This document shows, in pieces, positions 10,743 through 42,175 of a stretch of 64,000 nucleotides of DNA. The DNA comes from Hyphomicrobiales bacterium (lineage in GTDB: Bacteria > Pseudomonadota > Alphaproteobacteria > Rhizobiales > JAJFHC01), in the NCBI GenBank assembly GCA_965275905.1, contig CBDHYJ010000078.1, positions 10,908-74,907 on the forward strand, written 5' to 3'. The notes beneath the pieces are model-generated. The model was not told where the DNA came from. It did no database searches and saw only the letters and a list, made by a program, of their open reading frames with translations. Made by a program: the position numbers and the translations under genes. How positions within the stretch are numbered: position 1 is the stretch's first letter; each line of letters starts with the position of its first letter.

Positions 10743-10844
10743 ATGAATAGGTTAATCAAGTTTCTCACTGCAATTGGAACTCTTTGGGCGTCGGCCTCGC
10801 TCTCTGTTGTTGCTTATGCCGGGACGATGAACGTATTGCCCTGA
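10743..10844 (+). CDS. hypothetical 33-aa hydrophobic mini-protein
   Basis: ATG preceded by GAGGAA (gaggaatcgtagATG). Product MNRLIKFLTAIGTLWASASLSVVAYAGTMNVLP is one signal-peptide/TM-like helix. Its stop lies 3 nt from the stop of the convergent 695-aa gene. It is too short for the ORF track. Confidence 0.25.
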   Translation: MNRLIKFLTAIGTLWASASLSVVAYAGTMNVLP

Positions 10845-10847
10845 GAA

Positions 10848-12935
10848 TCATTCCAATTGCTTTAGGTGCCAGTTGGCGGAGCTTCTGTTTTTCTGTGTGA
10901 CGGGACGTTCTCGAAGAATCTGAGGTAGGTTTAGCCGATCAAGAATGAGTTTGTTCTTTTCCTTCCAGTTCGATCTCGCATTCACCGATATTGCATCCGT
11001 TAGCTGTAAGCTCCTATCATAGGCCATAATTGCCAGATTTAGAAGTTTAACAGCGCGGTCCTTCATGATGCTGGTATGGGACTGTCCAGAGCTAATTTGT
11101 TCAATGGCACCAATTGCCTGCCTTAGGTAAATGCTACCCGACGTATCGGACGCGGCAGCATCCATTAAGTTTTTCAAGCTATTATTCTGGTCAATGATGC
11201 AGATCCAATTAATTTCTAATAATTTGCCTGCAGCATTGCTTGCTATTGTTTCATATCTCTCCGTAAATCTATTCAATATTACAGACGTGTAAGCAAATTG
11301 ATTCTCTGTCCTAATTCTCTGAAATATCAGATGTTTTGCATGTCTCAATCTTTTCGCTTCCTTGATTCCAAATGATTCTCCAATATTGCATTCCTGCGTT
11401 AGTGTTACGAAATTATCCGTGCCGCTTCGAATTAATAGGATTCTTGACAAATCGTTTCTTGCTTCGAGCGCCTTATCAGCAAGTAACTCTTTGTCGGCAG
11501 AATTAATAAGAAGGAATATCAAGTAGTCCATCGCCCTAAATTTGTGCCACAGCCCAACGGCAATGTCTTTGTCTGAGAGGCCTAATTTCTCATTCTCTAA
11601 GAACTCCTGTTCAAACTGTCTGACCCAGCCGTCTAGATGAGCAAGCGCTGCCCGCCGGTCTCCAAGTACGTCATAGATTGCTGATATCACCAACGATAGA
11701 TACGGCCTGTCTGTTCTAATTGTTCGAAATGCATCGCGAACAGAGTTGCAAAACTGAACTATCGCATTCTTGGTAGGTTGTTCTTCACTGCAAATTTCAT
11801 AGCTCGCTGCGTCGTTTGAATTTTCCAAGAATGGATCCGTATTTATGAAGTGCTTTTTGTTTCCTTCTTCACTGTCGTACTTTACGAATATGTTAACGGG
11901 TGCAAAATTATTAAAATCCCAAATCATTTCCGTTAATCTTTTGCATCCGTGTTCAAAGTTCTGATCAATTCTTCCCAGTTTTATTGAGCTAGTCAGAAAT
12001 TTTCGAAAAATGGAATCGTATCTAAAATTTTCTTTCAATACTTCAAGCATAACTTGAAATATTTCACTTTGTATCTCTAAAATATCACTATCAGATATCA
12101 AAATTTTATTATTATTTACTACATCTCCAGATGCTAATATTAATCTAAGTCGATTGGCGATTTTTCTGGCTGAATTTGCGATATCATTTATCGACCCAGT
12201 TTTTGTCAATATATTCTTCATGCACAGTGAAACTGGACTTATATAATATTGAAAAAACAATTTGTCTGAATTATTAATTTCTGTGAAATAAGATTTCTTG
12301 TGTGTATTGCTATCCATAATTCGAATCATAAACGACATATCTTCGTCGCGCTCAATCAATTTATGCATATCTACTAATATTCGAAAAACATAAGAATTTG
12401 CTTGATTCTTATTTGTGCTGGTTCGGTGTGCCAATGACAATTCAAACTTCGTTTTATTATTTTTTCTTACCTGCTCTAATTCTATAGATCCAATCGGCGT
12501 CGTGATTCCACTGATGCTCCGGATTAATACGTGAAATCCGATATCGCTAGACCCTAGAAAAAGTATTACTACTGAAAATATGCCCCAATTTCGATGAATT
12601 CGCTTTTCTGATTCGTTAGCAAGGAGGTCCGGATGCATTGTCAATTCGGCCCATTTGCCAAAGATCAACCCAAATACACTTCCTAAAATGAAATAGTAAA
12701 AATCATTAGAATGAAGTTTGATATGCTCCCATCGTCTTTCCAATATCCATAAGGGATCATCTCGATACAAAACGAATAGTGTTGCAATAATAATAATCGA
12801 AAATATGCTGGTAACAGATAATACGAACCACACAAATGCGGGGTGTGATATTCCGTCATATCGTTCTCGAACAATGTAAGCGGATGAAAAGCTAATGGCC
12901 GAGGCGATAATCGCGAATATCAAAAATTCAGACAT
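10848..12935 (-). CDS. hypothetical membrane protein: four N-terminal TM helices plus a ~550-aa helical soluble domain
   Basis: It is the only long ORF in the AT-rich islet, at 695 aa. TM helices are FLIFAIIASAISFSSAYIV, FVWFVLSVTSIFSIIIIATLFVLY, FYYFILGSVFGLIFGKW and WGIFSVVILFLGSSDIGFHVLI. I recognise no catalytic motif in the rest. Confidence 0.7.
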   Translation of the reverse strand: MSEFLIFAIIASAISFSSAYIVRERYDGISHPAFVWFVLSVTSIFSIIIIATLFVLYRDDPLWILERRWEHIKLHSNDFYYFILGSVFGLIFGKWAELTMHPDLLANESEKRIHRNWGIFSVVILFLGSSDIGFHVLIRSISGITTPIGSIELEQVRKNNKTKFELSLAHRTSTNKNQANSYVFRILVDMHKLIERDEDMSFMIRIMDSNTHKKSYFTEINNSDKLFFQYYISPVSLCMKNILTKTGSINDIANSARKIANRLRLILASGDVVNNNKILISDSDILEIQSEIFQVMLEVLKENFRYDSIFRKFLTSSIKLGRIDQNFEHGCKRLTEMIWDFNNFAPVNIFVKYDSEEGNKKHFINTDPFLENSNDAASYEICSEEQPTKNAIVQFCNSVRDAFRTIRTDRPYLSLVISAIYDVLGDRRAALAHLDGWVRQFEQEFLENEKLGLSDKDIAVGLWHKFRAMDYLIFLLINSADKELLADKALEARNDLSRILLIRSGTDNFVTLTQECNIGESFGIKEAKRLRHAKHLIFQRIRTENQFAYTSVILNRFTERYETIASNAAGKLLEINWICIIDQNNSLKNLMDAAASDTSGSIYLRQAIGAIEQISSGQSHTSIMKDRAVKLLNLAIMAYDRSLQLTDAISVNARSNWKEKNKLILDRLNLPQILRERPVTQKNRSSANWHLKQLE

Positions 12936-13086
12936 CGAAAATTTACTTCAAAGTTTGCGTTACTTTATTAGTATCGGTTTTATATTTATTTTCAGCAAGA
13001 AAAAGTTGTGTTACTCGGCATGCCGAAATTCAATAATTTGAATTTGGTCATTTCGGAGGGCGTTCAGATCCATGGTCTTGGGTCAC

Positions 13087-21894: not shown

Positions 21895-22018
21895 GGCGGA
21901 TCAGTCCTTGTTTATGGTCTGGCGGATATATAGCAATGAAATGGCGTGGACGAAGGGCCAATGCGCGCCGTGTCGGGTAACGGGCTCTCAGGTGGACCGG
22001 CGGTGGCGCAATGGGGCT

Positions 22019-22046
22019 TTGGCAAGCCTGGCAATTCTGCTATAGC
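22019..22046 (+). promoter_or_regulatory. candidate sigma-70 promoter for the tRNA
   Basis: TTGGCA-N16-TATAGC; the -10 element ends 45 nt before the mature tRNA 5' end. Confidence 0.3.
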
Positions 22047-22091
22047 AGGCGCTGCGTGAACGGTGCATGAACCGGCGTTCCCGCACAGCGT

Positions 22092-22168
22092 GGGCCTGTA
22101 GCTCAGTTGGTTAGAGCCGACCGCTCATAACGGTCTGGTCGCAGGTTCGAGTCCTGCCGGGCCCACCA
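22092..22168 (+). tRNA. tRNA with CAT anticodon (elongator Met, or Ile2 read after lysidine modification)
   Basis: Full cloverleaf folded by hand: acceptor gggcctg/cgggccc, D-arm gctc-agttggttag-agc, anticodon stem gaccg/cggtc with loop ctCATaa, T-arm gcagg-ttcgagt-cctgc, discriminator A, encoded CCA. It is not an initiator (no 1:72 mismatch, no GGG/CCC anticodon stem). Confidence 0.93.
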
Positions 22169-22171
22169 TTC
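22150..22171 (+). repeat. direct repeat copy 1 (tRNA 3' end; att-like)
   Basis: agtcctgccgggcccaccattc is identical to 25489-25510. Confidence 0.9.
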
Positions 22172-22241
22172 AGTTCCCTGACGAGTTAGCAAACCGTCAG
22201 TGTAATAAGAGCCATCGTGCAAAGCGATTCCTTGAACAATT

Positions 22242-23495
22242 CTATTTCCTGGCCTTTTGGGCGGGCGACCGCTTGACCTTTAAGCGTCTCTGGGCGGACA
22301 GAGCGGATGCGATGAAGTTCAGCGCCCAAACTTTGACCCTTCCTTTCATTGATGCCTGTGCCTGCGTCACAAATCGCGTGTATGCCACCGAACTGGTAAT
22401 ATCAGGATTTCTTCTGGGTTCGGTAATTTCATAGGAACCGTCATTCAGTTTCAGCTCAAAGTGCGTCTTGGGATTGTTACTTTTGCAGTTGGATGTAACT
22501 CGGTCCACAATCAGGATCCGAACTTTCTGCGGATACCAGAGATTTCTCTCGAACCATCCAGGCGAACGGAATTTGAAAACCGTAAATACAGTGCGTTCGA
22601 TCTTGAGGTCTTTTTCATAGGTTTCTTCACGCACAGTCTTCAATGCTGCTTCGATTGACGCGCTCAGTTCCGCGTCAATGAGTTTAGCGAATGGTGCTTT
22701 CGCAGTTACAGCGGCTTTGATCTCAGAGGATCGCACAATTTTGCTGCCAACATCGCAGCGTTTGATAAGGCGGCGTGTTGGATATTCGTAAGTCTTCGGA
22801 AACGGTATCGTAGGCCGTTCTATTTTCCGAATTTCCGAGAGTTGGGTCTTCGGAATCCAACCAATTACACCTTTGCACCCATGGGGCTTAAGACACTCGA
22901 CTTCTATGTGTTCACGACCACTGTCGTCATACAGATTGCCGCGCCAAGCAAATATCCGCCCGCGGCCAATTTCGGACTTCATTTTTAGGCCAGAATCTTT
23001 GTAGAACTCGGCAGCTTCTACTGAGATGAATAGCTGTTCAGCAGAATGAGCAGATTTGAGTCTCTCATATTCCTCAGGGGCGATGAGTTTCCTTTCAATA
23101 TCAAGAACGTTTAGATAGAGGAACGAATTACTCGACAACGAAAAAGCCAAATGTCTGCCGTTAAGCTTAGCATCAAGGATGAGAACATGCTCGCCCGGCC
23201 TTATAAACTCACTCGTCGAACCGGTGGCGGCATTTGAAAAGCGATTTGTGCGAGCATCATACACTGCCGACAATCCGAAAGTGAGATTGGTCGTCGTGAA
23301 CCCTTCATGCAGAACACGCATTCGTTGCGCGCAGCGTTCCCAGTATCTTTCCGGTGCGCCATTCCAAACAAGTCGAGACTCGCCAGTTTTGAAAGTGCAC
23401 ATATACATTTCATCGACATTGGTCTGTGCATCTCCATTTGCTGTTGCTGTCCCTAAAAGGATTGCAGTTGCCAAGAGGCAAGCATTTGTGCGCAT
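22242..23495 (-). CDS. hypothetical secreted protein (417 aa)
   Basis: ORF 22242..23516 trimmed to ATG 23495 (GGAGGGAATGGGAG immediately upstream). Signal peptide MRTNACLLATAILLGTATANG. No motif I recognise. Confidence 0.7.
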   Translation of the reverse strand: MRTNACLLATAILLGTATANGDAQTNVDEMYMCTFKTGESRLVWNGAPERYWERCAQRMRVLHEGFTTTNLTFGLSAVYDARTNRFSNAATGSTSEFIRPGEHVLILDAKLNGRHLAFSLSSNSFLYLNVLDIERKLIAPEEYERLKSAHSAEQLFISVEAAEFYKDSGLKMKSEIGRGRIFAWRGNLYDDSGREHIEVECLKPHGCKGVIGWIPKTQLSEIRKIERPTIPFPKTYEYPTRRLIKRCDVGSKIVRSSEIKAAVTAKAPFAKLIDAELSASIEAALKTVREETYEKDLKIERTVFTVFKFRSPGWFERNLWYPQKVRILIVDRVTSNCKSNNPKTHFELKLNDGSYEITEPRRNPDITSSVAYTRFVTQAQASMKGRVKVWALNFIASALSAQRRLKVKRSPAQKARK

Positions 23496-23894
23496 CTCCC
23501 ATTCCCTCCGCGTCACGTGTTGGTTTTGTTGCTCCCCAAGACCAGATGCCCATAACGCGAGATTCTAAGAAATCTGCGGGATTACGGGAAAAGATCGCTC
23601 AGAGGTTTCGTGGTTTTCTTTGGCGTTGAATTCATCTGAAAAGTGGTATTCTGGGAGGCAATCAGCACGCTGAATATCGGTTGGTGAATCTCCGAATCAG
23701 CTCAATAAAAATTCGCCGGTTCGGTGGCCATTTAGTCCAAATTGGCTTCAGCCAAAGAGTCAGGATTCGGAATTTTTGACTTATTGGTCACAAGTTTTGG
23801 ATGGGCAAGAATTTGAATGATTGAGCCAGTTTCGGCTTTTATCAAATTCTTCGATTTTTCAACCAAAAGTATTCGATAAATTTTTGATCAAACA

Positions 23895-23923
23895 TTGCAA
23901 ATTTTTGTCAAATATTGTCTAAA
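23895..23923 (+). promoter_or_regulatory. candidate promoter of the 494-aa islet gene
   Basis: TTGCAA-N17-TCTAAA, 26 nt upstream of ATG 23949. Confidence 0.25.
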
Positions 23924-23948
23924 TGACCCTCTGGGAAGGGGGGATAGT

Positions 23949-25433
23949 ATGTCGCGCATTTCTTTGCTGTGCAGCCTTGCCGCTGCTTTGGAAGAGGAAA
24001 AACTCACGAGGATTTTGACTGCCTACAACGAGCAGTTGAAAGACCTCGTGACCAAAGGTGATACAAAAGGAAAGATCAACTACCCCAAATTAGCGCGCCA
24101 TATTCACTATGTAGCGCTGGCTGTTGCCGAAGACCGTCACAAGAAACGCGTTTCAGCAACTCCGCATTCAGATACCTCTAACGCCGGAATTGGATCCAAC
24201 GACTCGACGAGCTCAAAGGGACCCGCATGGAAATACATTGCGGACAAAGTAGAGCACGTATGTGGTTCCCACTCTGAAGATTTCAAAGGCCTTCTTCCAA
24301 AAAAGGTGACCAATGACCGCATTAGCAGCTTCGCCACCTTTGGATCAATGGCGAATGGTGTTAGTACGCCTTGCTTTTACGTGGCTTTGGTTCTCTTCAT
24401 TATCTATTCGTCTGAGACAGGAGAGACGGATCGAGATTTTTTCAAACGCGCTATTCCCAAGAGAGAAAGAGACTTATCGCGGCTGCTATTTGACGACATG
24501 AGTTCTGCGCTGCGTTCTGAAGTACGGACGGATACCGATGACGAGGAACACGAAATAACTGTGAATTTCAACATAAAAAGGAGCAAGACAGACGAGTTCA
24601 TCAAGTATTTCGATCAGTATGCCTTCAGTGATGACGGACGCGCACATTTGGTACTGTATCGGCCGACGCGGTCAGATCCGGCAATCCTGATCAAAACCTT
24701 TCTGTCAATCGGGCCGCACTCCGAAGACAAAGACGGCTATGCATATGCGCACTATTACAAGCCGGTTGATGGGACGCCCCGTACTCGCTTCAGTGGGGGA
24801 AAAGTTCTTCCAATGGACAATGGTTTGTTTATGGCGGGCGGTCAGAAACCGCACGCACTTAATGAAAGAACAGATAAACCATTTATCTCTCTCAAAACAA
24901 TGGCATTTCGATGGACGGATATCGACAACAACGCGCCAGTTTTGCCTGGCCTTGTCATGTCGACCAACTTTGAGGGAGAGCAATTGGTTTCAAGGATTGT
25001 TGCTCGAATTACGCCAATTCCGCATTCCGACGAACTTGAGCTAAGATCGGTGAGAAATGATGATCTGGTCGAAAACTTGAAGGCAGATATCGAAAAAGAA
25101 AAAGCAGTAATCGAGGAAATAACAAAGAACAAAAGCCTCTATTATGAGAACGCATCGAACTTTGTCATTTATGACTCTGAAATCGACATTCGAAAATTAG
25201 CTGATCGAATTCTCTCTTTGACGAATAACCGACCAAATCCAAAGACAGGCGTTGCGGCGCCCTCGGGATACTCCAGAAGAGCCCAGCGAAAGATCGAAAA
25301 GCTGACTAGTCCTCGCCTTAGTACGGTCATCGATGATGCATTCGAGCATGACGACAGTGCCTACCAGGACAAAGACGGGAACTACTATAATTTTTGGGAG
25401 CATACCCGTTTTGGTCCGCTAACCATTTCGTAA
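23949..25433 (+). CDS. hypothetical protein (494 aa), no TM or signal peptide
   Basis: ORF 23895..25433 (TTG) trimmed to ATG 23949 with GGGGGGA 5 nt upstream. No recognisable catalytic or binding motif. Confidence 0.7.
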   Translation: MSRISLLCSLAAALEEEKLTRILTAYNEQLKDLVTKGDTKGKINYPKLARHIHYVALAVAEDRHKKRVSATPHSDTSNAGIGSNDSTSSKGPAWKYIADKVEHVCGSHSEDFKGLLPKKVTNDRISSFATFGSMANGVSTPCFYVALVLFIIYSSETGETDRDFFKRAIPKRERDLSRLLFDDMSSALRSEVRTDTDDEEHEITVNFNIKRSKTDEFIKYFDQYAFSDDGRAHLVLYRPTRSDPAILIKTFLSIGPHSEDKDGYAYAHYYKPVDGTPRTRFSGGKVLPMDNGLFMAGGQKPHALNERTDKPFISLKTMAFRWTDIDNNAPVLPGLVMSTNFEGEQLVSRIVARITPIPHSDELELRSVRNDDLVENLKADIEKEKAVIEEITKNKSLYYENASNFVIYDSEIDIRKLADRILSLTNNRPNPKTGVAAPSGYSRRAQRKIEKLTSPRLSTVIDDAFEHDDSAYQDKDGNYYNFWEHTRFGPLTIS

Positions 25434-25488
25434 GCACATTAAGGCCAACGGCGCGATATGGAGAACCCATTCACTCCGGCTTATGCGT

Positions 25489-25510
25489 AGTCCTGCCGGG
25501 CCCACCATTC
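25489..25510 (+). repeat. direct repeat copy 2 (att-like)
   Basis: Exact copy of 22150-22171. The sequence upstream of it has no further tRNA similarity. Confidence 0.9.
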
Positions 25511-25712
25511 CGCGCCACGGCATTGCGCCTTTCTCAAGCTGCCTTTTGCGCCTGCCGGCAAGGGCGTCTTGCCGTTCCTGTCGATGCTGGATTACCCTGC
25601 ATTCCGGCCTGTCACCGAACGGGCCGTGGGCCGCCATAATCCCCGGGTCCGCGGCCGGAACGCGGTGATCGGGCCAGTCACAGATGCAACGGTCCAGCAG
25701 GAGCTCTCTTTC

Positions 25713-27395
25713 ATGGACAACACGTCGCTGATTGCCCGGTTTCGCGAGATTGTCGGCCGGCGCAACGTGCTGACAGGCGCGCGCGCCACCGAGCGGTTCC
25801 GCCGCGGCTTCCGGTCGGGCGAGGGCGAGGCGCTGTGCGTCGTGCGTCCGGGCACGCTGCTGGAACAATGGAAGGTGCTCGAAGCCTGTGTCGCGGCGGA
25901 CAAGATCGTCATCATGCAGGCCGCCAACACGGGCCTGACCGAGGGCTCGACCCCTTCGGGCAGCTACGATCGCGACGTCGTACTCATCAATACATGCCGG
26001 ATGGACGCCATCAAGGAGATCAATGGCGGCCGCCAGGTCATTGCCTTCCCCGGCGCCACGCTGTTTGCACTTGAAAAGCTCCTTGCGCCGCTTGGCCGCG
26101 AGCCTCATTCGGTGATCGGCTCATCCTGCATCGGGGCATCCGTGATCGGCGGCGTCTGCAATAACTCCGGGGGCTCGCTGGTGGAGCGTGGCCCGTCCTA
26201 TACGGAACTCTCGCTGTTCGGCCAGATCGGCGAAGACGGGCAATTGCGGCTGGTCAATCACCTCGGTATCGACCTCGGCGACTCGCCTGAGGAGATCCTG
26301 GGCCGGCTTGAAAAGGGTGACTTCGACAGGACCGTGGCGGCGACGAACCTCAAGGCTTCAGACACGGATTACGCCGCGCAGGTCCGCAATGTCGATGCGG
26401 CCACGCCGGCACGGTTCAACGCCGACAAGCGCCGGCTTTACGAGGCGTCCGGCTGCGCCGGCAAGCTCGGGGTCTTTGCCGTTCGCCTCGACACATATGC
26501 GAAGCCCGACGCCGAGAGGATCTTCTATATCGGAACAAACGACGTTGGCGATCTGACCGAATTGCGCAGGCATATTCTCGCCAATTTCGAGACATTGCCT
26601 GTTTCGGCCGAGTATGTGGAGCGCGAAGCCTTCGACATCACCGAACGCTACGGCAAGGACACGGTGATGATGATCGACCGGCTCGGCACCGACCGATTGC
26701 CGACGTTCTTCGCGCTCAAGGGTGCCGTCGATTCGCGTCTGCGGAATATTCCCGGGCTTGCGAATTTCACCGACCGGTTCATGCAGTTTGTTTCGCGTCT
26801 GACCCCCGCGGTCCTGCCTAAACGGCTTCTGCAGTTTCGTGACCGTTACCGCCACTACCTGATTCTCAAGATGCGGGACGGCGGCATCGACGAGGCTGCT
26901 GAGTTTCTCGCGGATTTCTTCGCTGACCGCGACAGCGACTTCTTCGAATGCGACAGCCGGGAGGCAAAGATCGCGGGGCTGCACCGCTTCGCCGCCGCGG
27001 GCGCGGCGATCAGGTATATGGCAATCCATAGCGCGGAGGTTGAGGACATCATCCCGCTCGACATCGCCCTGCGCCGTAACGACCGCGACTGGTATGAGCA
27101 ACTGCCGCCCGAGATCGAGGATCAACTGGTTCACAAGCTCTACTATGGCCACTTCATGTGCCACGTCCTGCATCAGGACTACATCGTGAAGAAGGGGGCC
27201 GACGCAAAGGCGCTCAAGGCGCAGATGCTTGAAATTCTCGATCAGCGCGGCGCGGAATACCCCGCCGAGCACAATGTCGGCCACCTCTACAAAGCCAAAC
27301 CGGATCTCGCCGCCCACTACAGGGCTTGCGATCCGACAAACGCCTTCAATCCCGGCATCGGCAAGACATCGAAAACCAAGAATTATGCCGATTAA
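25713..27395 (+). CDS. dld: FAD-dependent (quinone-type) D-lactate dehydrogenase
   Basis: ORF 25569..27395 trimmed to MDNTSLIARFREIVG. Resembles E. coli Dld along its full length (MQAANTGLTEGSTP, GSSCIGASVIGGVCNNSGGSLVERGPSYTE, EHNVGHLYKAKP, DPTNAFNPGIGKTSK). Confidence 0.9.
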   Translation: MDNTSLIARFREIVGRRNVLTGARATERFRRGFRSGEGEALCVVRPGTLLEQWKVLEACVAADKIVIMQAANTGLTEGSTPSGSYDRDVVLINTCRMDAIKEINGGRQVIAFPGATLFALEKLLAPLGREPHSVIGSSCIGASVIGGVCNNSGGSLVERGPSYTELSLFGQIGEDGQLRLVNHLGIDLGDSPEEILGRLEKGDFDRTVAATNLKASDTDYAAQVRNVDAATPARFNADKRRLYEASGCAGKLGVFAVRLDTYAKPDAERIFYIGTNDVGDLTELRRHILANFETLPVSAEYVEREAFDITERYGKDTVMMIDRLGTDRLPTFFALKGAVDSRLRNIPGLANFTDRFMQFVSRLTPAVLPKRLLQFRDRYRHYLILKMRDGGIDEAAEFLADFFADRDSDFFECDSREAKIAGLHRFAAAGAAIRYMAIHSAEVEDIIPLDIALRRNDRDWYEQLPPEIEDQLVHKLYYGHFMCHVLHQDYIVKKGADAKALKAQMLEILDQRGAEYPAEHNVGHLYKAKPDLAAHYRACDPTNAFNPGIGKTSKTKNYAD

Positions 27396-27632: not shown

Positions 27633-29069
27633 ATGCCGGATTCGCTCGGGCTCGAAGCTCGGACGAACGCTATGGGTACCAGTCTTGACGCTCGGCCGCT
27701 TGGCAAGGGGGAGACGTTCTGGTCATTGAACGGCCAGCGCCAGGGCCTTGTCGGCGATCTTCTGGGGCAGGGCGGTCAGGGCGCGGTACACCGGGTCGAG
27801 TTCAGCTCCGATACCTATGCGCTCAAGTGGTACCACGATCACTACATTGCCGTTGACGGGACGCTGAGAGACAGGCTGCGACGCACCATTGCCAGAGGCG
27901 CTCCGGACAAGCGCTTCCTCTGGCCCCTTGAACTGGTGCAGATGCCGGACCGGCGCGCCTTCGGCTATGTGATGGCGCTCAGGCCTGGCGAGTATCGCTG
28001 CATCCGCGATCTGCTCGCCCCGCCGCCCAGCCGCATCGTCCTCCCGCTTGAGAAACGGCTGCGGATTTGCCGCCAGATCGCAGACAGTTTCCTCAACCTT
28101 CACGCCGGCGGGTTCTGCTATCAGGACATCAATTTCGGCAATTTCTTCATCCACCCAAACACCGCCGATGTCCTGATCTGCGACAACGACAACGTCAATG
28201 TCGACGGCGCGGACGCCAGTATCTACGGCACCCGCAAATTCATGGCACCGGAGGTCGTGCGCCGCGAAATCCTGCCAAACACGCGTACCGACCTGTTCTC
28301 GATGGCCGTGCTGTTCTTCTACGTGCTGTTCGGATGGCATCCGCTCGACGGCAAGCGGGAAGCCAATGCCCGGGTCCTGAATGCCGAGGTGGAGATGGAC
28401 CTCTACGGCAACAATCCGAAGTTCATCTTCGATCCGTCAGATAACGAAAACGGCCCGGTCGCGCCGATGCACGATGCGGTGGTCTGCCGTTGGAACTCGC
28501 TGCCGCAGCCGCTCCGTGACCTCTTTGTCCGCTCGTTCTGCGAGGGACTGACAGTGCCCAACCGCCGGGTGCTCGAACAGCAATGGCTCAAGGCATTCGA
28601 GCAGATTCGCAGTGCGGTGTTCGAATGCCCGGCCTGCCGTTACGAACATGTCCTCGAGCCGTCTTCGAGCCAGACCGATTCCATTGACTGCGTCTATTGC
28701 GGCCAGGAATTCGAGCAGCCGCCCTTCCTGCAGATCGGCAGGTCCGGTTTCGTGCTGACCCGCGACAAGGCGATCGGGCTCAGGGATATCGGTGTTCCGG
28801 GCGCTGCCTCATGGGACAGCGCGGCTCTGGTGGTCGAGCATCCGACGCGCAAGGGAGTGCTCGGCCTGCGCAACATGATGGAGAAGGCGTGGATCGTGCG
28901 CTCGGACCGGACCGCGAGTTCTTCGGTGGCTCCCGGAAAAACCGTGATGCTTCTGGACGGTCTGAAAATCGATTTCGGATCGCACAGCGGCACCATTCGC
29001 GATCCGGCCAACGCGGACCGGCCGGGTCTGAAGGCGGGATCGGATCAGGCGGAGGGCCGGGCGGAATGA
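27633..29069 (+). CDS. atypical Ser/Thr protein kinase with zinc ribbon and C-terminal FHA-like module
   Basis: Gly-rich loop LGQGGQGAV, Lys motif YALKW, catalytic loop YQDINFGNF (in place of HRDLKxxN), DNDN (in place of DFG), GTRKFMAPEV (APE). Zinc ribbon CPACRYEH-x13-CVYCGQEF (nt 28626-28700). C-terminal ~95 aa (nt 28722-29000) is shared with the PrsW protein. An alternative start is ATG 27672. Confidence 0.85.
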   Translation: MPDSLGLEARTNAMGTSLDARPLGKGETFWSLNGQRQGLVGDLLGQGGQGAVHRVEFSSDTYALKWYHDHYIAVDGTLRDRLRRTIARGAPDKRFLWPLELVQMPDRRAFGYVMALRPGEYRCIRDLLAPPPSRIVLPLEKRLRICRQIADSFLNLHAGGFCYQDINFGNFFIHPNTADVLICDNDNVNVDGADASIYGTRKFMAPEVVRREILPNTRTDLFSMAVLFFYVLFGWHPLDGKREANARVLNAEVEMDLYGNNPKFIFDPSDNENGPVAPMHDAVVCRWNSLPQPLRDLFVRSFCEGLTVPNRRVLEQQWLKAFEQIRSAVFECPACRYEHVLEPSSSQTDSIDCVYCGQEFEQPPFLQIGRSGFVLTRDKAIGLRDIGVPGAASWDSAALVVEHPTRKGVLGLRNMMEKAWIVRSDRTASSSVAPGKTVMLLDGLKIDFGSHSGTIRDPANADRPGLKAGSDQAEGRAE

Positions 29070-29899
29070 CTGAAGTACAGGCGCAGAGCGGCGGCTGGCT
29101 CATTGGCGGTGCATCCGTCATCGGCCCATCGCATCAGCGCCGCGACCTGCCCAATCAGGATGCGCTCCTGTTTACACCCCAAAACGGGCGCGGGCCCATC
29201 ATTCGGGCGGCCATTGCCGACGGACATGGCGCGGCCGCGCACCACCGATCGGACCGCGGCGCCCGGTTTGCGGTGGAAAAGTCCATAAGCGTGCTCGACT
29301 GGTTCCTAGAGGACCAGGAGACGATCGATCTCAACGACCTTTCGAACCAGATGATCGAGGCGTGGCGGGTGGCTGTCCTGGAGGACGTCGAGCAGCACCC
29401 GCTTGAGCAGGCGCAGGACAATCCGTTCACGCCCTACGGATGCACGCTTCTGACCGCAGCCGCGACCCGCGACAGTGTCTGCCTGACGCAACTGGGCGAC
29501 GGCGACATCCTGCTTGGCTACGAGGACGACACCATCGTTCGTCCTATCGCTCAGGATGCCGGACTGCAGGGGGAGCAGACCTACTCGATATGCCTGACCG
29601 ATGCCGGCGAATACGTGAAGACCTGGTTCGCGCACCGCAACTGGGATGACGCCATTCCCGACTTCATCCTGATGGCGACGGACGGGGTCTCCAAGTCGTT
29701 CCGGTCGGAAGACGCTTTTCTGAACGTCGCGGCGGATTACCGCGTGCGCTGCCGGGACTCGCGCGACACCTACCTCAAGACACTCAAGGCACTTCCGGAG
29801 TGGCTGTCCGAACTGGCGGCCAGAGGTGCCGGCGACGACACGACGTTGATATTGGCGGTCCGGACTTCGGATCAGGAGGGGAGCAAGAAAAATGACTGA
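29066..29899 (+). CDS. PP2C-family Ser/Thr phosphatase
   Basis: The start ATG overlaps the kinase stop (ATGA), with GGAGGG upstream. Metal-binding motifs are NQDA, ADGHG, GDGD, ATDGV and GDDTTL. Confidence 0.85.
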   Translation: MTEVQAQSGGWLIGGASVIGPSHQRRDLPNQDALLFTPQNGRGPIIRAAIADGHGAAAHHRSDRGARFAVEKSISVLDWFLEDQETIDLNDLSNQMIEAWRVAVLEDVEQHPLEQAQDNPFTPYGCTLLTAAATRDSVCLTQLGDGDILLGYEDDTIVRPIAQDAGLQGEQTYSICLTDAGEYVKTWFAHRNWDDAIPDFILMATDGVSKSFRSEDAFLNVAADYRVRCRDSRDTYLKTLKALPEWLSELAARGAGDDTTLILAVRTSDQEGSKKND

Positions 29900-31262
29900 C
29901 AGACGACCTGACGACATGCCACAGGCGCCTCGGGACTATGACGATGCCTCCTATTCGGAGCTGGTGCCGATCAAGTCTTCGTCGATCAGCATCATCAAGA
30001 GCCCGCTTTTCTACGTCGTCGCGGCGACAGGCGTTCTGACAATGGCGCTGGTCTACGGGATGTTCTCGTTCGGCCAGACGTCTTCGGTGAAGGCTCTGAT
30101 CAACTACGGGCTGGTGGCGATCGCCTATCTCCTGCTGATCGTCCTCGCACTCGTCTATCTCTATTCACGGTCGGACAAGCCGTTCTGGGCGTTCGCGATC
30201 TCATTCGGGATTGTCAGCATCATCTTCATGACGCCGCTCATCCAGTTCATCCTGACGCCGTTCCGGTTCTGGATGCCGAGAAGCTGGATCGGCAACAATC
30301 TGATCTCCCACTATATCTGGATGTTCTTCGGGGCCGGGATGGCCGAAGAGTTCCTGAAGAGTATTCCCGGCCTGATCGGCGCCTGGCTCGCCGTCAAGGG
30401 CACCCATCTTCGCGAAAAGTCCGCCAGGCTCTATGACTGGATGGTCGTTCGGGGCCCGCTGGACGGCCTGATGATGGGCGTTTTCGCGGGCGCAGCCTTC
30501 ATCTTCTTTGAAACCGGCTTTGAGTACTTCCCGAGACAGTTCGCGCAGAATCCGGATGCGGCGAAGGGACTGAGCGGTCTGATGCTTCTCATTCCGCGGG
30601 TTTCCGGCGGCATGGTCGGGCACATGTGTTGGGCCGGGATCACGGGGTATTTCATCGGCCTTGTGGTCATGCGTCCCAACGCATGGAAGTTCGCGCTCTA
30701 TGCGTGGGTCGGGTCGTCAGCCATTCACGCCATGTGGAACTCGCTGGGCTTCGTTGCCCTGTTCGGACCGCTTTCGATCGGCATCGGCGGACTGGTCTTC
30801 GTGGCCTGTTTCCTGAAGGCAAAGCAGATGGACCAGTCGCTCGGGCGCCAGCAGGACGGCTATGGATCGATTGTCGTCCAGCCCGATGACCGGCCTTCAC
30901 CGTCTCCGGCGGCCGCTCCGGCACCGGACGCAACCGCGGCCCCGCCACCTCCGCCGCAAAGCGCGCTGTTCCTCCAGTCCGGCGCTGTCCGCCTCCCGGT
31001 TGTTCCCGGGCAGCAGCTGGACTTCGGGCCGCTCAAGGAGGCCGGCCTCGGCGTCGACGGACTGGGTGCCGAAGTGACCACTCATCCGACGCGCAAGGAC
31101 GTGCTGGGTCTGAAGAACACCGGAGACCGCCCCTGGGCCGTGACCTTGAGAGACGGTTCGCAGATCGAGCTTGAAACCGGACGGAACATCCGTCTTGCGC
31201 CGGGCGTCAAGATCAATCTGGGCAACGACGTGACGCTCGATGTCTACGAGAGCGGAGCCTGA
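29892..31262 (+). CDS. PrsW-family intramembrane protease fused to a Pro/Ala linker and an FHA-like module
   Basis: 8-nt overlap with the PP2C gene, AGGAGGGGAG upstream. Multi-pass TM core with PrsW signature motifs AEEFLK (EExxK) and HAMWN (HxxxN). Then linker PSPSPAAAPAPDATAAPPPPP and a C-terminal module at nt 30963-31250. Confidence 0.8.
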   Translation: MTDRRPDDMPQAPRDYDDASYSELVPIKSSSISIIKSPLFYVVAATGVLTMALVYGMFSFGQTSSVKALINYGLVAIAYLLLIVLALVYLYSRSDKPFWAFAISFGIVSIIFMTPLIQFILTPFRFWMPRSWIGNNLISHYIWMFFGAGMAEEFLKSIPGLIGAWLAVKGTHLREKSARLYDWMVVRGPLDGLMMGVFAGAAFIFFETGFEYFPRQFAQNPDAAKGLSGLMLLIPRVSGGMVGHMCWAGITGYFIGLVVMRPNAWKFALYAWVGSSAIHAMWNSLGFVALFGPLSIGIGGLVFVACFLKAKQMDQSLGRQQDGYGSIVVQPDDRPSPSPAAAPAPDATAAPPPPPQSALFLQSGAVRLPVVPGQQLDFGPLKEAGLGVDGLGAEVTTHPTRKDVLGLKNTGDRPWAVTLRDGSQIELETGRNIRLAPGVKINLGNDVTLDVYESGA

Positions 31263-38479: not shown

Positions 38480-39406
38480 CTACCCGTCCACTTGCGCAAG
38501 CGTATCTGCCCGCTCGATTGCGCTGACGAGCGAGTTGTCCGAGACCTTGGTATAGATCTCGGTCGTGGAGATGCTTGCGTGACCCAACAGGCGCTGAACG
38601 AGGCGGATATCCACGCCTTCTTCGATAAGCATGGTCGCCGCTGAATGGCGAAATCTATGCGGCGTCAGATGCGGCTCGATGGAAAGGGAGCCGGATAGTG
38701 TCCGTAGCCGCTTCCGGAATGCTGCTTCGGTCAAACGGCTGCCGCGGGAATTCAGGAACAGGAATGCATGAGCATCAGACGAACGGTTTCGGAATTCTCG
38801 ATGATGTCTCAGATCCCGCAACAGGCGGGCGTTCGTGATGTATACGGTTCTCTCGCGGTTGCCCTTGCCGCGCACCCTGATCCGGGAACATGAATGGGAA
38901 ACATCGCTGATGCGCAGATTGGTCGCCTCTCCGATACGCATGCCCGTGACCACGAGCAGACGTGCAATCAGGCCGGTAATCTGATCGGACGTGGTCGGCG
39001 CCTCTAAGCCGCGGCCCTCTTCCACAAGGTGCTTCGAGGCCTGAAACAGCGCGCTGAGGGTAGGGCGGTCGATCGGTCTCGGCAGTCTCCGTGGTACCTT
39101 GAGTTCGAGCCGGAGCCCGTCGAACGGGGACAGTGATCCGTCGGCTTCCTCCTGCAGCCAGCGAAAGTAGGATCGCAAGGTGGCGAAACGCCTGCGGATG
39201 GTTGCCGCGCCGGATGACCTCTCTTCGCGCAGATATTGATGGTATTCGACCATGTCGTCTGGCTTCGGCATGCCGGATAGCCCGTACCGGTCTGCGAATC
39301 TCTTGAATGCTCTCAAATCCTGCTGATACGCCCGGATCGAGTTGGCGCTGAGGCCAAGTTGATCCCGGCAGTAAGTTGCGAACGCGCTGAAATGAATCTC
39401 GATCAT
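38480..39406 (-). CDS. tyrosine site-specific recombinase (XerC/D-phage integrase family)
   Basis: N-terminal SAM-like domain (IRAYQQDLRAFKRF). Catalytic domain with RIGEATNLRISDV, HRFRHSAATMLIEEGVDIRLVQRLLGHASISTTEIYTKV (R..HxxR..H..Y). GGAGAG RBS. Confidence 0.9.
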   Translation of the reverse strand: MIEIHFSAFATYCRDQLGLSANSIRAYQQDLRAFKRFADRYGLSGMPKPDDMVEYHQYLREERSSGAATIRRRFATLRSYFRWLQEEADGSLSPFDGLRLELKVPRRLPRPIDRPTLSALFQASKHLVEEGRGLEAPTTSDQITGLIARLLVVTGMRIGEATNLRISDVSHSCSRIRVRGKGNRERTVYITNARLLRDLRHHREFRNRSSDAHAFLFLNSRGSRLTEAAFRKRLRTLSGSLSIEPHLTPHRFRHSAATMLIEEGVDIRLVQRLLGHASISTTEIYTKVSDNSLVSAIERADTLAQVDG

Positions 39407-39621
39407 CGTGTCTCTCCATTATGTAACGGGTGCGCGATGATCCGGCAGCCGGAGCAACTCGATCGCACCAGCGCGTTGAAGTGCGACGAGAATCTAAAGA
39501 ATCACTTAGGAAATCGATTTTCGGTTTTGGAAATCTGCTGAAAAATAGGATTTAATCCTAAGTTTTTGCTATTCTTCGCGCGCAAATGCTGACTTGTTGA
39601 AGGCAAGAATTGTCAAGTAAC

Positions 39622-39654
39622 GATAACTGGGAATTATCATGAATGTTGAGGGGG
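39622..39654 (+). repeat. inverted repeat, left copy (IR-L)
   Basis: gataactgggaattatcATGAATGTTGAGGGGG: 17 nt of leader plus the first 16 nt of the methyltransferase CDS. Confidence 0.97.
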
Positions 39655-40949
39655 CCGATTATCGATCCCATAGTTCGAAATTAGAAAAGTGGGCAGTTCA
39701 CAAATTGCTGAAGTTTTTGTTTGGTTCAGCTCCTGTGGAACTCGATTTTCAAGAAGGTGATATTAAAAAATTAAATCACCCCAACCCAACGATACGGGTG
39801 GCACCCCCACGCCTATGGCGACTGATTCTCATCCTTCGAAATCCCAATTATCACTTCCCGGCTGCTTATGTAGACGGCTTCTGGTATTGCACAAAAGGCG
39901 AATTGAGTGATCTTGTTTTGCAACTCAAAAACCGAAAGCGGAGAAACACCCGCAATTCTGGGTTATCCTTTGGGTTGGGAGAACTCGGAATTCACATCTA
40001 TAGGCACTATTTGCGACCGTCTTCGCTACGGGAAACACGTAAACACTACAATACCGACGTAAGAATGTATCGGGCCGTTCTAGGCGAGAGCCTAATATAC
40101 TCATGTGCCTTTTTTGAATCAGTTTCAGACACGCTTGAGCAGGCTCAGGCGAACAAGGTGTCAACGACCTTACGCCGTCTGGCCGACCAAATCGACGAAG
40201 GCACTCTTACATTGGATATTGGTTGTGGTTGGGGAAGCTTTGTTTTCTCAGCAGCCAAAATAAACGAAGGCAGATATCATGGAATCTCGATCGCCAAGTC
40301 GCAGGTAGACTACGCTGTCAAAACCAGGCGGAAGTTGGATAAGCGCATCGCCGAACGGCTCGAGTTCTTCCACTGTGATTTCTTAGATTTTAGGCCAGAT
40401 GAAAACAATGTTTACGATTACATTGTGAGCATAGGGATGTTAGAGCATGTTGGCAAAACACAATATCCAAAATATTTTGCCGAGATTTATCGACTGCTGA
40501 AACCTGGCGGACGCGCACTAGTTCACTCAATCACAAGACGGCAAACTGGTGTTACAAATGTTTGGATTGATCAACACGTATTTCCTGGTGGATATATTCC
40601 AAGAGCGTCAGAGGTCATGCGTGGAATTGAAGGATCGGGTCTGGAGTTATTTTCCAGTCATGTTCACAACGGGCTCAACTACAAAAAGACTTTGCAATAT
40701 TGGCTCGATAATTTGTCAAGAAACGAAAAACTATGCCTCACGTTATTGAAGAATTCTGTCGTGGGAGCGGCGTCGCTTGGAGGAGGAGGCGATATTTTGG
40801 ACTACCAGTCTCGACGCGGTTATCGAATTTGGAAATTTTATCTATCTTCCATTCAATGCATATTTGACAGAAACGGTGGCGCTTTTGACGTGACGCAGTT
40901 TGTCATGGTCAAACCAAGCCAAGAAACTTTCCTACAGCGAGAACCATAA
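39639..40949 (+). CDS. cyclopropane-fatty-acyl-phospholipid synthase-like SAM-dependent methyltransferase
   Basis: 436 aa. YSCAFFE...LEQAQ, SAM motif I LDIGCGWGSF, IVSIGMLEHVG, LLKPGGRALVHSI, FPGGYIPR, YKKTLQYW: the CMAS/CFA-synthase family pattern. Confidence 0.85.
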   Translation: MNVEGADYRSHSSKLEKWAVHKLLKFLFGSAPVELDFQEGDIKKLNHPNPTIRVAPPRLWRLILILRNPNYHFPAAYVDGFWYCTKGELSDLVLQLKNRKRRNTRNSGLSFGLGELGIHIYRHYLRPSSLRETRKHYNTDVRMYRAVLGESLIYSCAFFESVSDTLEQAQANKVSTTLRRLADQIDEGTLTLDIGCGWGSFVFSAAKINEGRYHGISIAKSQVDYAVKTRRKLDKRIAERLEFFHCDFLDFRPDENNVYDYIVSIGMLEHVGKTQYPKYFAEIYRLLKPGGRALVHSITRRQTGVTNVWIDQHVFPGGYIPRASEVMRGIEGSGLELFSSHVHNGLNYKKTLQYWLDNLSRNEKLCLTLLKNSVVGAASLGGGGDILDYQSRRGYRIWKFYLSSIQCIFDRNGGAFDVTQFVMVKPSQETFLQREP

Positions 40950-41967
40950 CTCCGCCGATAACACTCTGAGTGATCGTTAACATGGAGCTAATAGCAAAAT
41001 AAAGGCACCTATCTGAGCGCGATTTCGCGCTTGCAGCTATTCCGCCAAGAGGCTCGGGTAACATAGCTTCATCCGCATCGTTTGTGCCGAAATAAATGTC
41101 CTGAATTTTCTTCGAGAGTCGAACTAGTAGGAAAATTAGAGAAACCAACAACACAAGAGCCATGCCTACAAAGGTAGGTAGGAATACAGTTCCTGTAATA
41201 AACAACTGGCCTGGGAATGTGACCGGATAAAAAGTCTGTTGTGCTCCAACGACGCTTTCAAGAAACGCATATGGCATCAATGCGGCCTCGATGGACCATG
41301 GATCGAAAGACAATGGCGGCTTCTCCAATGCCATTGGATAAAGAAAATTCGAGACCAACTGGGAGGAGGAAAACAGCAACAATGCTGCAACCAAATCAAA
41401 GGCAACTCTTCCAACCACAGTTGCGTACCGCTGGAGAGAAAATGCTGAACCGATACGAGTAAGATTGATGAATGTTATTGCTAACGAGAGCAAGTCCGTA
41501 ACAACATTCACGACTGCCAAGATCGCAATATTTACAATCTGCGACGGAGCGTCTTTGCTAACGCCAAAGGCAACCAATTTTCCAGCCTCTTGGCTAGCGG
41601 TAATGTCTATTGGTTTCGCAAGGAAAACCAATATCAAACAGTAAAGCATATAGTAAGAAAATAACTGCCAAAAACACTTCAACTTATTCTGTGCAAAATA
41701 GGTCCGACCAATATAATTGGCATTTATGTATTGACCGTCATTGCTCGATATATCGTGTTTTGATGCGCCCGAGAATTTTAGCAGAGATATTTTAATTCTG
41801 GTGATAGCGCCGACCAGAGCATTGGCCATTGGTGATTTCGATTTTTCCCCTTCCAATAAAAATCGAAATATACTGCCCCAGTTCAACACTAGCAGTACAA
41901 ACAAAACCAGCGAAAATGAAGCGATAGCGAGTTCCGGCCCGCCAGCAATCACCCCCTCAACATTCAT
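40909..41967 (-). CDS. hypothetical polytopic membrane protein (352 aa)
   Basis: Roughly 8 hydrophobic helices (for example LAIASFSLVLFVLLVLNW, FSYYMLYCLILVFLA, IVNIAILAVVNVVTDLLSLAITFI, VFLPTFVGMALVLLVSLIFLLV). Shares only MNVEG with the methyltransferase. Its 3' end overlaps that gene by 41 nt. Confidence 0.75.
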   Translation of the reverse strand: MNVEGVIAGGPELAIASFSLVLFVLLVLNWGSIFRFLLEGEKSKSPMANALVGAITRIKISLLKFSGASKHDISSNDGQYINANYIGRTYFAQNKLKCFWQLFSYYMLYCLILVFLAKPIDITASQEAGKLVAFGVSKDAPSQIVNIAILAVVNVVTDLLSLAITFINLTRIGSAFSLQRYATVVGRVAFDLVAALLLFSSSQLVSNFLYPMALEKPPLSFDPWSIEAALMPYAFLESVVGAQQTFYPVTFPGQLFITGTVFLPTFVGMALVLLVSLIFLLVRLSKKIQDIYFGTNDADEAMLPEPLGGIAASAKSRSDRCLYFAISSMLTITQSVIGGVMVLAVGKFLGLV

Positions 41968-41984
41968 GATAATTCCCAGTTATC
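41952..41984 (-). repeat. inverted repeat, right copy (IR-R)
   Basis: ccccctcaacattcatgataattcccagttatc is the exact reverse complement of 39622-39654. Confidence 0.97.
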
Positions 41985-42175
41985 AGAACTCCGTGAGGGG
42001 CTCGTAGTGGAAGGTCCAAAACTCAATGAGAGCTTCGAGTTGCGCCTTCGCTAGCGATGTGACCAGTTCGGACGTGCTGCTTGGCGAGGCTAGCCCGCTG
42101 GTCAATTTGCAACACGTTGGGCACCTGAAGGCGTGAGGACTCTGCTCTAACAGAACTGCCGCGCCGATTTACCGC

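Follow-up and report, generated by a model that had tools for sequence, protein, structure and literature searches.

A 3.3-kb low-GC islet between two copies of a tRNA(CAT) gene end in a Hyphomicrobiales genome, a probable integrase-less remnant of an integrative element

How does a short segment of foreign-looking DNA come to lie exactly between two copies of a tRNA gene end, when it carries no recombinase gene of its own? This question is raised by a 3.3-kb islet in a 64,000-nucleotide stretch of a Hyphomicrobiales genome (assembly GCA_965275905.1, contig CBDHYJ010000078.1, positions 10,908 to 74,907 of the forward strand), which we refer to as the window and whose own numbering is used throughout. 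The islet follows a tRNA(CAT) gene, holds two divergent genes, here called orfA and orfB, and ends in a second copy of the tRNA 3' end. A preliminary description, made from the sequence alone, read the two copies as the attachment sites (attL and attR) of an element integrated into the tRNA gene, and offered two origins for the islet: a minimal satellite-like element mobilised in trans, or the stump of a larger island. Our analysis favours the stump. With a probability of about 0.7, the islet would be the remnant of an integrative element that entered an attachment (att) site in the T-loop and 3' end of tRNA(CAT) and then lost its integrase, that is, an element of the cis-mobilizable (CIME) type.

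Anatomy of the repeat and of the insert

The islet is framed by AGTCCTGCCGGGCCCACCATTC, which occurs twice in the window as an exact direct repeat on the forward strand (Table 1). No third copy was present in the window, even with three mismatches allowed, and the number expected from shuffled sequences was zero. The repeat is exactly 22 bp long, as the bases on either side of the two copies are unlike (G/A versus T/C). It begins at the fifth nucleotide of the 7-nt T-loop (22146-22152) and ends 3 nt past the CCA. The coordinates and the tRNA anatomy given for the 22-mer in the preliminary description were all reproduced.

ARAGORN assigns the tRNA(CAT) gene to the Met type. The predicted G1-C72 pairing excludes an initiator identity, and the candidates are elongator Met or Ile2, the lysidine-carrying type. 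We take its acceptor stem (GGGCCUG...CGGGCCC, with C4-G69 and C5-G68) to be closer to that of tRNA-Ile than to that of elongator tRNA-Met, and the gene may presumably encode a lysidine-modified tRNA-Ile2.

The second copy might be the relic of a tandem tRNA gene, with the low-GC DNA arriving between the two genes by another route; tRNA genes are sometimes tandemly duplicated, and the 22-mer is itself tRNA sequence. However, the 58 nt located 5' of the two copies have only 6 bases in common, and neither ARAGORN nor Rfam, the latter even at an E-value of 0.1, found a second tRNA. The second copy is therefore not part of a decayed tandem tRNA. In addition, the repeat runs 3 nt past the CCA, the base composition steps at the repeat edges, and the same fragment boundary lies beside integrases in unrelated metagenome loci. 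Tandem tRNA decay, which the preliminary description had itself named as the finding that would speak against att sites, is thus close to refuted.

The anatomy is instead that of known tRNA islands, the ends of which are marked by an intact tRNA gene (tDNA) and a displaced fragment (PMC4383910; see also 10.1101/2020.11.02.365908). Attachment sites in the T-loop/T-stem region form one of the two main tRNA-gene classes, with 1836 of the 3919 islands in the Islander collection (PMC4383910). The attL/attR reading is supported by this T-loop-type anatomy, by the sharp step in composition, and by the occurrence of the same 5' boundary beside integrases in other genomes.

The composition step is pronounced. 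The GC content of the insert (Table 1) compares with 0.633 in the rest of the window, two other low-GC patches left out, and the drop coincides with the repeat edges. At the third codon position, the two islet genes have a GC content (GC3) of 0.49 and 0.50, versus 0.76-0.84 in the neighbouring host genes. The size of 3.3 kb put forward earlier corresponds to 3,317 bp between the exact cores, the DNA is low in GC, and the count of 25 G+C in the 60 nt of 24361-24420 was obtained again. Apart from the two genes, the islet comprises only 70, 453 and 55 bp of non-coding DNA, the 70 and 55 bp adjoining the two cores.

The insert encodes no machinery for its own movement that we could detect. Family scans, tblastn and a check of the open reading frames (ORFs) were all empty for an integrase, excisionase, transposase or replication gene, in line with the preliminary description, and tblastn with five tyrosine integrases revealed neither an integrase nor an integrase remnant in the islet. 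No convincing Xis-like small ORF was found in the islet spacer, and the two islet ends have no arm-type repeated motifs in common. The tRNA was the only RNA family detected in the islet region, where matches to consensus promoters and terminators were at chance level; a weak promoter-like match lies at 23845-23817 in the divergent control region.

Table 1. Features of the tRNA(CAT) locus and the islet (window coordinates)
Feature	Position	Strand	Description
tRNA(CAT) gene	22092-22168	+	Intact, presumably regenerated by the insert; ARAGORN; Rfam RF00005, 68 bits; arm-by-arm dissection
attL core	22150-22171	+	Last 3 nt of T-loop, T-stem 3' strand, acceptor 3' strand, A, CCA, TTC
Foreign insert	22172-25488		3,317 bp; GC 0.468; 83% coding; without pseudogene remnants
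orfA	22242-23495	-	417 aa; predicted exported
Divergent control region	23496-23948		453 bp; AT-rich
orfB	23949-25433	+	494 aa; no signal peptide
attR core	25489-25510	+	Displaced tRNA 3' fragment, 22/22 bp identical to attL
dld	25713-27395	+	Quinone-dependent D-lactate dehydrogenase; right-flank host gene outside the element; Pfam PF09330, 7.7e-138; GC3 0.78

Proposed integrase loss, and use of this att in other genomes

A CIME is defined as an element whose genes for integration and transfer have been lost but which has kept attL and attR (PMC5704250, PMC6323972). The islet has retained both cores as an exact repeat, whose boundary recurs beside integrases elsewhere, and the family scans and tblastn revealed no gene for integration, excision, conjugation or mobilisation. 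Descent from an integrative and conjugative element (ICE) or an integrative and mobilizable element (IME) is plausible: the same gene pair lies inside an element with a relaxase and a type IV coupling protein (T4CP) in loci L001 and L087, and an apparent decay intermediate, in locus L108, occupies the same att. A parent with the ends of the islet was not found.

The favoured course of events would be as follows. A tyrosine integrase would have inserted the element into the T-loop/3'-end att of tRNA(CAT). The incoming DNA would have supplied a replacement tRNA 3' end, now attL, and the original 3' end would have been pushed to the far side as attR. The integrase and any transfer genes would later have been lost, by an internal deletion or by the site-specific loss of a tandem neighbour, leaving attL, two intact divergent cargo genes and attR. 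Such a remnant would not be self-mobile; to be excised, or to travel along in cis, it would need the arrival in the cell of another element with an integrase for this att. The repeat and its tRNA anatomy, the foreign composition, the lack of a recombinase, the occurrence of integrase-bearing elements at this att and the presence of the pair on other mobile elements are direct observations; we infer the order of events, with integration preceding integrase loss, and the dependence on a helper.

The preliminary description had proposed a search for the same 22-bp att in other islands. A scan of metagenome contigs with the 22-mer gave at least 120 loci, and with two loci on viral contigs we sampled 122. 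The 22-mer is part of a full tRNA gene in 103 of them and lies outside any predicted tRNA gene in the other 19. Five of these 19 copies are cut by a contig end, while 14 are displaced fragments. The start of the fragment lies in the anticodon loop or variable region in eight cases, coincides to the nucleotide with that in the window in four (L108, L136, L149 and L178), and lies 4 nt earlier in two (L103 and L130, which are identical in sequence). On one of the two viral contigs (L093), a full tRNA gene is followed 68 bp on by an integrase gene, whereas the other (L092) has a partial tRNA near the contig end. Integrases beside this att are encoded in L093 and L111 (377 aa, 68 bp from the tRNA gene), L175 (428 aa, P4-like), L149 (403 aa) and L108 (225 aa, PF00589 at 4e-21). 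The search thus returned displaced fragments together with integrases, as in L108, L149 and L175.

Locus L108 comes closest to the islet. A full tRNA(CAT) gene is followed by an insert of 2.4 kb with low GC, which has two divergent genes, encoding a Fic protein and the integrase, and then by a second core. Against the L093 integrase, this L108 enzyme aligns at residues 157-362 alone, and it has lost its N-terminal third. To judge from these sequences, L108 looks like a decay intermediate at the same att. Across the loci, this att presents a series from intact through truncated to absent integrase.

Two of the displaced fragments lie next to a different tRNA gene. In L149 (413-513), a 22-nt tRNA(CAT) fragment begins 2 nt past the 3' end of a tRNA-Ala gene and is followed by the 403-aa integrase, and in L178 (5085-5134), a 22-nt fragment follows just the last 14 nt of that tRNA-Ala. 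In both loci, the att of one element looks like it holds the scar left when an earlier element integrated at another tRNA.

Several observations weigh against an integrated element that has decayed. Neither an empty site nor an islet-less strain was found, and the insertion rests on anatomy rather than on comparison. When 185,579 species genomes were scanned with Dld as the anchor, the relatives obtained reached at most 82% identity, and the tRNA was near dld in 0 of the 80 loci fetched. Among 5.8 billion proteins, the closest relative of Dld was 83% identical and without tRNA-dld synteny. Searches for proteins exactly matching Dld or the SIMPL gene product returned nothing, and the junction of att and right flank had 0 matches in metagenome contigs. 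No integrase for this att was seen within the 64-kb window. No match to the islet ends was seen in any element sampled at this att, nor are the ends or the host flanks related to any of the 122 sampled loci, and the parent family was not found. Finally, an islet this clean (83% coding, no debris, genes 70 and 55 bp from the cores) is unusual, and simple decay by random deletion would not predict it.

A single site-specific event would account for the very clean structure better than a gradual erosion: the shared att may have served to excise a tandem neighbour, or a single deletion may have removed an attL-adjacent integrase, in the layout seen in L093 and L108. The predicted empty junction would read tRNA...CCACCATTC directly followed by CGCGCCACGG. 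If the islet is excised, empty-site reads would join ...GGTTCGAGTCCTGCCGGGCCCACCATTC straight to CGCGCCACGGCATTGCG, and if it circularises, the junction would read ...GGCTTATGCGT-AGTCCTGCCGGGCCCACCATTC-AGTTCCCTGACG.

The gene pair and its carriers

The two islet genes had been described as divergent orphans. They are indeed two and divergent, but not strict orphans: OrfA has 6 relatives, at 51-62% identity, among the 5.8 billion proteins, and OrfB has 5 close relatives in the same set and about 125 clusters at 50% identity in a profile search, nearly all of about 490 aa and none annotated. The alignments indicate that both genes encode real, conserved proteins. Neither protein matched a family in Pfam, NCBIfam, PADLOC or PHROGs, and neither had a match on PLSDB plasmids. 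With the PADLOC v2 defence models, OrfA and OrfB hit 0 families at E <= 1, and none was hit by the DCD, UDG and small proteins encoded near the pair in other loci.

In the OrfA alignment, the N-terminus resembles a signal peptide, six cysteines are invariant and a C-terminal helix (IASALSA) is conserved, and the protein is probably exported, with an envelope location. Its AlphaFold2 model is poor (pLDDT 45), too poor for a structure search, and a profile search against PDB sequences gave no match. The OrfB model (pLDDT 70) comprises a helical N-domain, a central β-rich domain (residues ~230-355) and a helical C-region, and the C-terminus carries a conserved motif, FW..TRFGPL. A Foldseek search of this model against PDB and BFVD had no match at E <= 0.001, the β domain giving a weak avidin/calycin-like similarity. 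A profile search of OrfB against PDB sequences and a Pfam scan of 56 family members yielded nothing. OrfB would be a cytoplasmic protein.

A recombinase of a new kind could in principle be hidden in OrfA or OrfB, making the islet autonomous, as both proteins are unannotated and the attL-adjacent gene of L108, which is oriented like orfA, encodes an integrase. Yet the signal peptide and six invariant cysteines of OrfA are typical of an exported protein, the conserved residues of OrfB fall in its β-rich domain, with no match to a recombinase family or structure, and no significant repeats flank the relatives of the pair. A distant OrfB relative (in L006) moreover stands alone amid ordinary chromosomal genes. 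An autonomous islet is accordingly a highly improbable alternative.

The divergent layout of orfA and orfB recurs in L001 and L087 together with three overlapping contigs, in Labrenzia sp. DG1229 (L005), in L214 and in L217. The divergent spacer measures 443-473 bp in all carriers of the pair and contains several conserved sequence blocks. The surroundings differ from carrier to carrier. In L001 and L087, the pair has an integrase on one side and a block of MobC, relaxase, T4CP, ParA and SSB genes on the other, as in a conjugative-type element; in the Labrenzia island, its neighbours are Tn3, DUF736, SSB and SNase genes; and in L214, it adjoins an insertion sequence. DNA similarity between the window and the other carriers is restricted to the two coding regions (~65-70% identity). 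Neither this att nor a tRNA flanks any of the other copies of the pair, and only short repeats at chance level were found around the pair in L087 and L005. Because the similarity is confined to the coding regions and no att or tRNA accompanies the other copies, the pair is cargo rather than an element with ends of its own. These comparisons suggest that it is a self-contained module with its own conserved control region, circulating on several unrelated mobile platforms.

The cargo status of the pair argues against the satellite and for the stump. An active integrase-less satellite, regularly moved in trans by a helper that uses the same tRNA att, would account for the two perfect att cores and for the very compact islet with intact genes and no debris; integrase-bearing elements at the same att are possible helpers, and integrase-less hitchhiking has been documented (PMC6323972). 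Against this, the ends of the islet have no relatives among the 122 sampled loci and share no arm-type motifs, no helper is present in the window, the similarity to other carriers stops at the coding regions and none of these is flanked by this att or a tRNA. We thus regard a satellite as unlikely, and the first of the two origins offered by the preliminary description as the weaker one, since the homology is limited to coding regions and the ends match no sampled integrase-bearing element. Also unlikely is a working minimal passenger, in which two att cores and a self-regulated module would be moved in trans by integrases of the L093/L108 family; selection would favour hopping of the module between tRNA islands, conjugative elements and the dif-like modules of a dedicated Xer-like recombinase, and the module would confer an envelope trait, possibly a new function in defence or exclusion.

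The last of these platforms brings in the sole recombinase gene of the window, which lies 13 kb from the islet (38480-39406, minus strand) and encodes a Xer-like tyrosine recombinase of 308 aa. Its scores are far below the equivalog cut-offs for XerC and XerD (198 versus 335 bits and 180 versus 330, respectively). Over its full length, the protein shares 59% identity with an integrase of 312 aa in L215, the gene for which is located 2.3 kb from an orfA relative; with a recombinase remnant of 143 aa beside the pair in L087, it shares 77% identity over 48 aa. About 205 bp upstream of the Xer-like gene lies a dif-like site, CGATAA-CTGGGAA-TTATC (39621-39637 on the plus strand in the window). The same arrangement of gene and site is present in L215, in plasmid pP66_d of Phaeobacter inhibens and in plasmid pSD25 of Ruegeria sp. 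PR1b, four contexts with the window. An inverted partner site lies at 41969-41985 on the minus strand of the window, within a perfect 33-bp inverted repeat (39622-39654 and 41952-41984). The inverted sites enclose 2.3 kb of low-GC DNA in the window, 4.9 kb of cargo in pP66_d, and a 3.05-kb cassette of a DCD gene and an orfA relative in L216. Within the 2.04 Mb examined, the motif was found in these loci only, and shuffled control motifs had 0-1 match each.

Relatives of orfA lie within 3.5 kb of a dif-like site in three loci. In L216 (57-3126), inverted sites enclose an HTH-DCD gene and an orfA relative. L215 (6-4708) has a site and the 312-aa recombinase, followed by a DCD gene and an orfA relative, and in L087 (6703-11218), the recombinase remnant of 143 aa, located beside the orfB/orfA pair, has one site fused to it. 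The orfA relative adjoins a gene with a DCD domain (PF22769) in L215 and L216, and lies within ~1.3 kb of one in L087. These layouts point to OrfA-type genes as a recurrent cargo of a recombinase system with Xer-like enzymes and dif-like sites.

The Xer-like recombinase might therefore be thought to serve the islet in trans, being the only recombinase gene of the window, resembling the enzymes of L215 and L087 as given above, and acting in a system whose site flanks the DCD and orfA cassette of L216. The islet and its ends, however, lack the dif-like site: none was found in 21900-25800, even in relaxed form. The site is also unlike the T-arm core of the tRNA, and in all contexts the sites occur as inverted pairs rather than as direct repeats of a tRNA end. 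Such a service is very unlikely. The islet was also considered as a dif-like module of this recombinase, and was rejected as such, inverted copies of CGATAA-N7-TTATC being absent there.

The 2.3-kb segment of the window has features of its own. It holds two convergent genes, for a CMAS-type S-adenosylmethionine-dependent methyltransferase and a 352-aa unannotated protein, and both start inside the 33-bp repeat, with an identical ribosome-binding site and identical first five codons. DNA inversion at this segment would let the two genes swap their place behind an outside promoter. Acinetobacter dif modules are similar to this segment, and the system of the window differs from them by its dedicated recombinase. 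The methyltransferase (39639-40949) matches PADLOC mad2 of the MADS system at 2.6e-19 over the methyltransferase domain only, probably reflecting generic methyltransferase similarity.

A third low-GC patch of the window, at 10800-13000 (GC 0.33-0.41), holds a single ORF of 695 aa (10848-12935, minus strand, GC3 0.38). This ORF had no match in Pfam, NCBIfam or PADLOC, and no clear bounding repeat was found at the patch. On the other side of the islet, 3' of dld (27633-31262), there are a protein-kinase-like gene (Pkinase, 1.6e-12), ORF 28697-29899 and a gene for an intramembrane protease of the PrsW family. By eye, and outside the family scan, we would take ORF 28697-29899 for a PP2C-type phosphatase.

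Comparison with known systems

The islet resembles the islands of the Islander collection (PMC4383910; classes of Williams 2002) in its intact tDNA with a displaced fragment in the same, direct orientation, in the T-stem/T-loop crossover and in its foreign composition. It differs from them in size, 3.3 kb being far below the typical value, and in the lack of an integrase, which Islander requires within the island (PMC4383910). Such pipelines would therefore reject the islet, and as att-flanked islets without an integrase are discarded in this way, examples outside the Firmicutes are poorly documented. The present islet is a clean example from the Alphaproteobacteria; its mechanism is a known one, and the practical value is modest. 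It does supply a defined att core for tests of helper-dependent excision, and orfA and orfB, as a rare, conserved and co-regulated pair on several kinds of mobile element, are a reasonable candidate for a new accessory function.

Phage-inducible chromosomal islands and related satellites, and the genomic islands mobilised by SXT, are likewise small and rely on a helper for transfer. They encode their own integrase, however, and usually regulatory or hijacking genes. The islet has none of these, and would at most be a passive passenger.

Locus L108 has the same tRNA(CAT) end and the same fragment start nucleotide as the islet, together with low GC, two divergent genes and a spacer of ~430 bp. 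It differs in its truncated, attL-adjacent integrase, in its Fic cargo and in a repeat that extends ~35 nt further downstream, and the two inserts have no sequence similarity.

The closest known category is that of the CIMEs, of which CIME19258 and CIMEL3catR3 of Streptococcus thermophilus are named examples in the accounts given by PMC5704250 and PMC6323972 (Pavlovic 2004; Bellanger 2011). The described CIMEs are mostly from Firmicutes and use other att sites, whereas the islet resides in a GC-rich marine alphaproteobacterium, at the T-loop/3' end of tRNA(CAT), and has no known partner ICE or IME. By definition, CIMEs become mobile only after a related element has integrated alongside. Like the islet, they are bounded by attL and attR and contain cargo only, with no genes for integration or transfer; they are regarded as decay products of ICEs and IMEs, an origin that is plausible for the islet as well.

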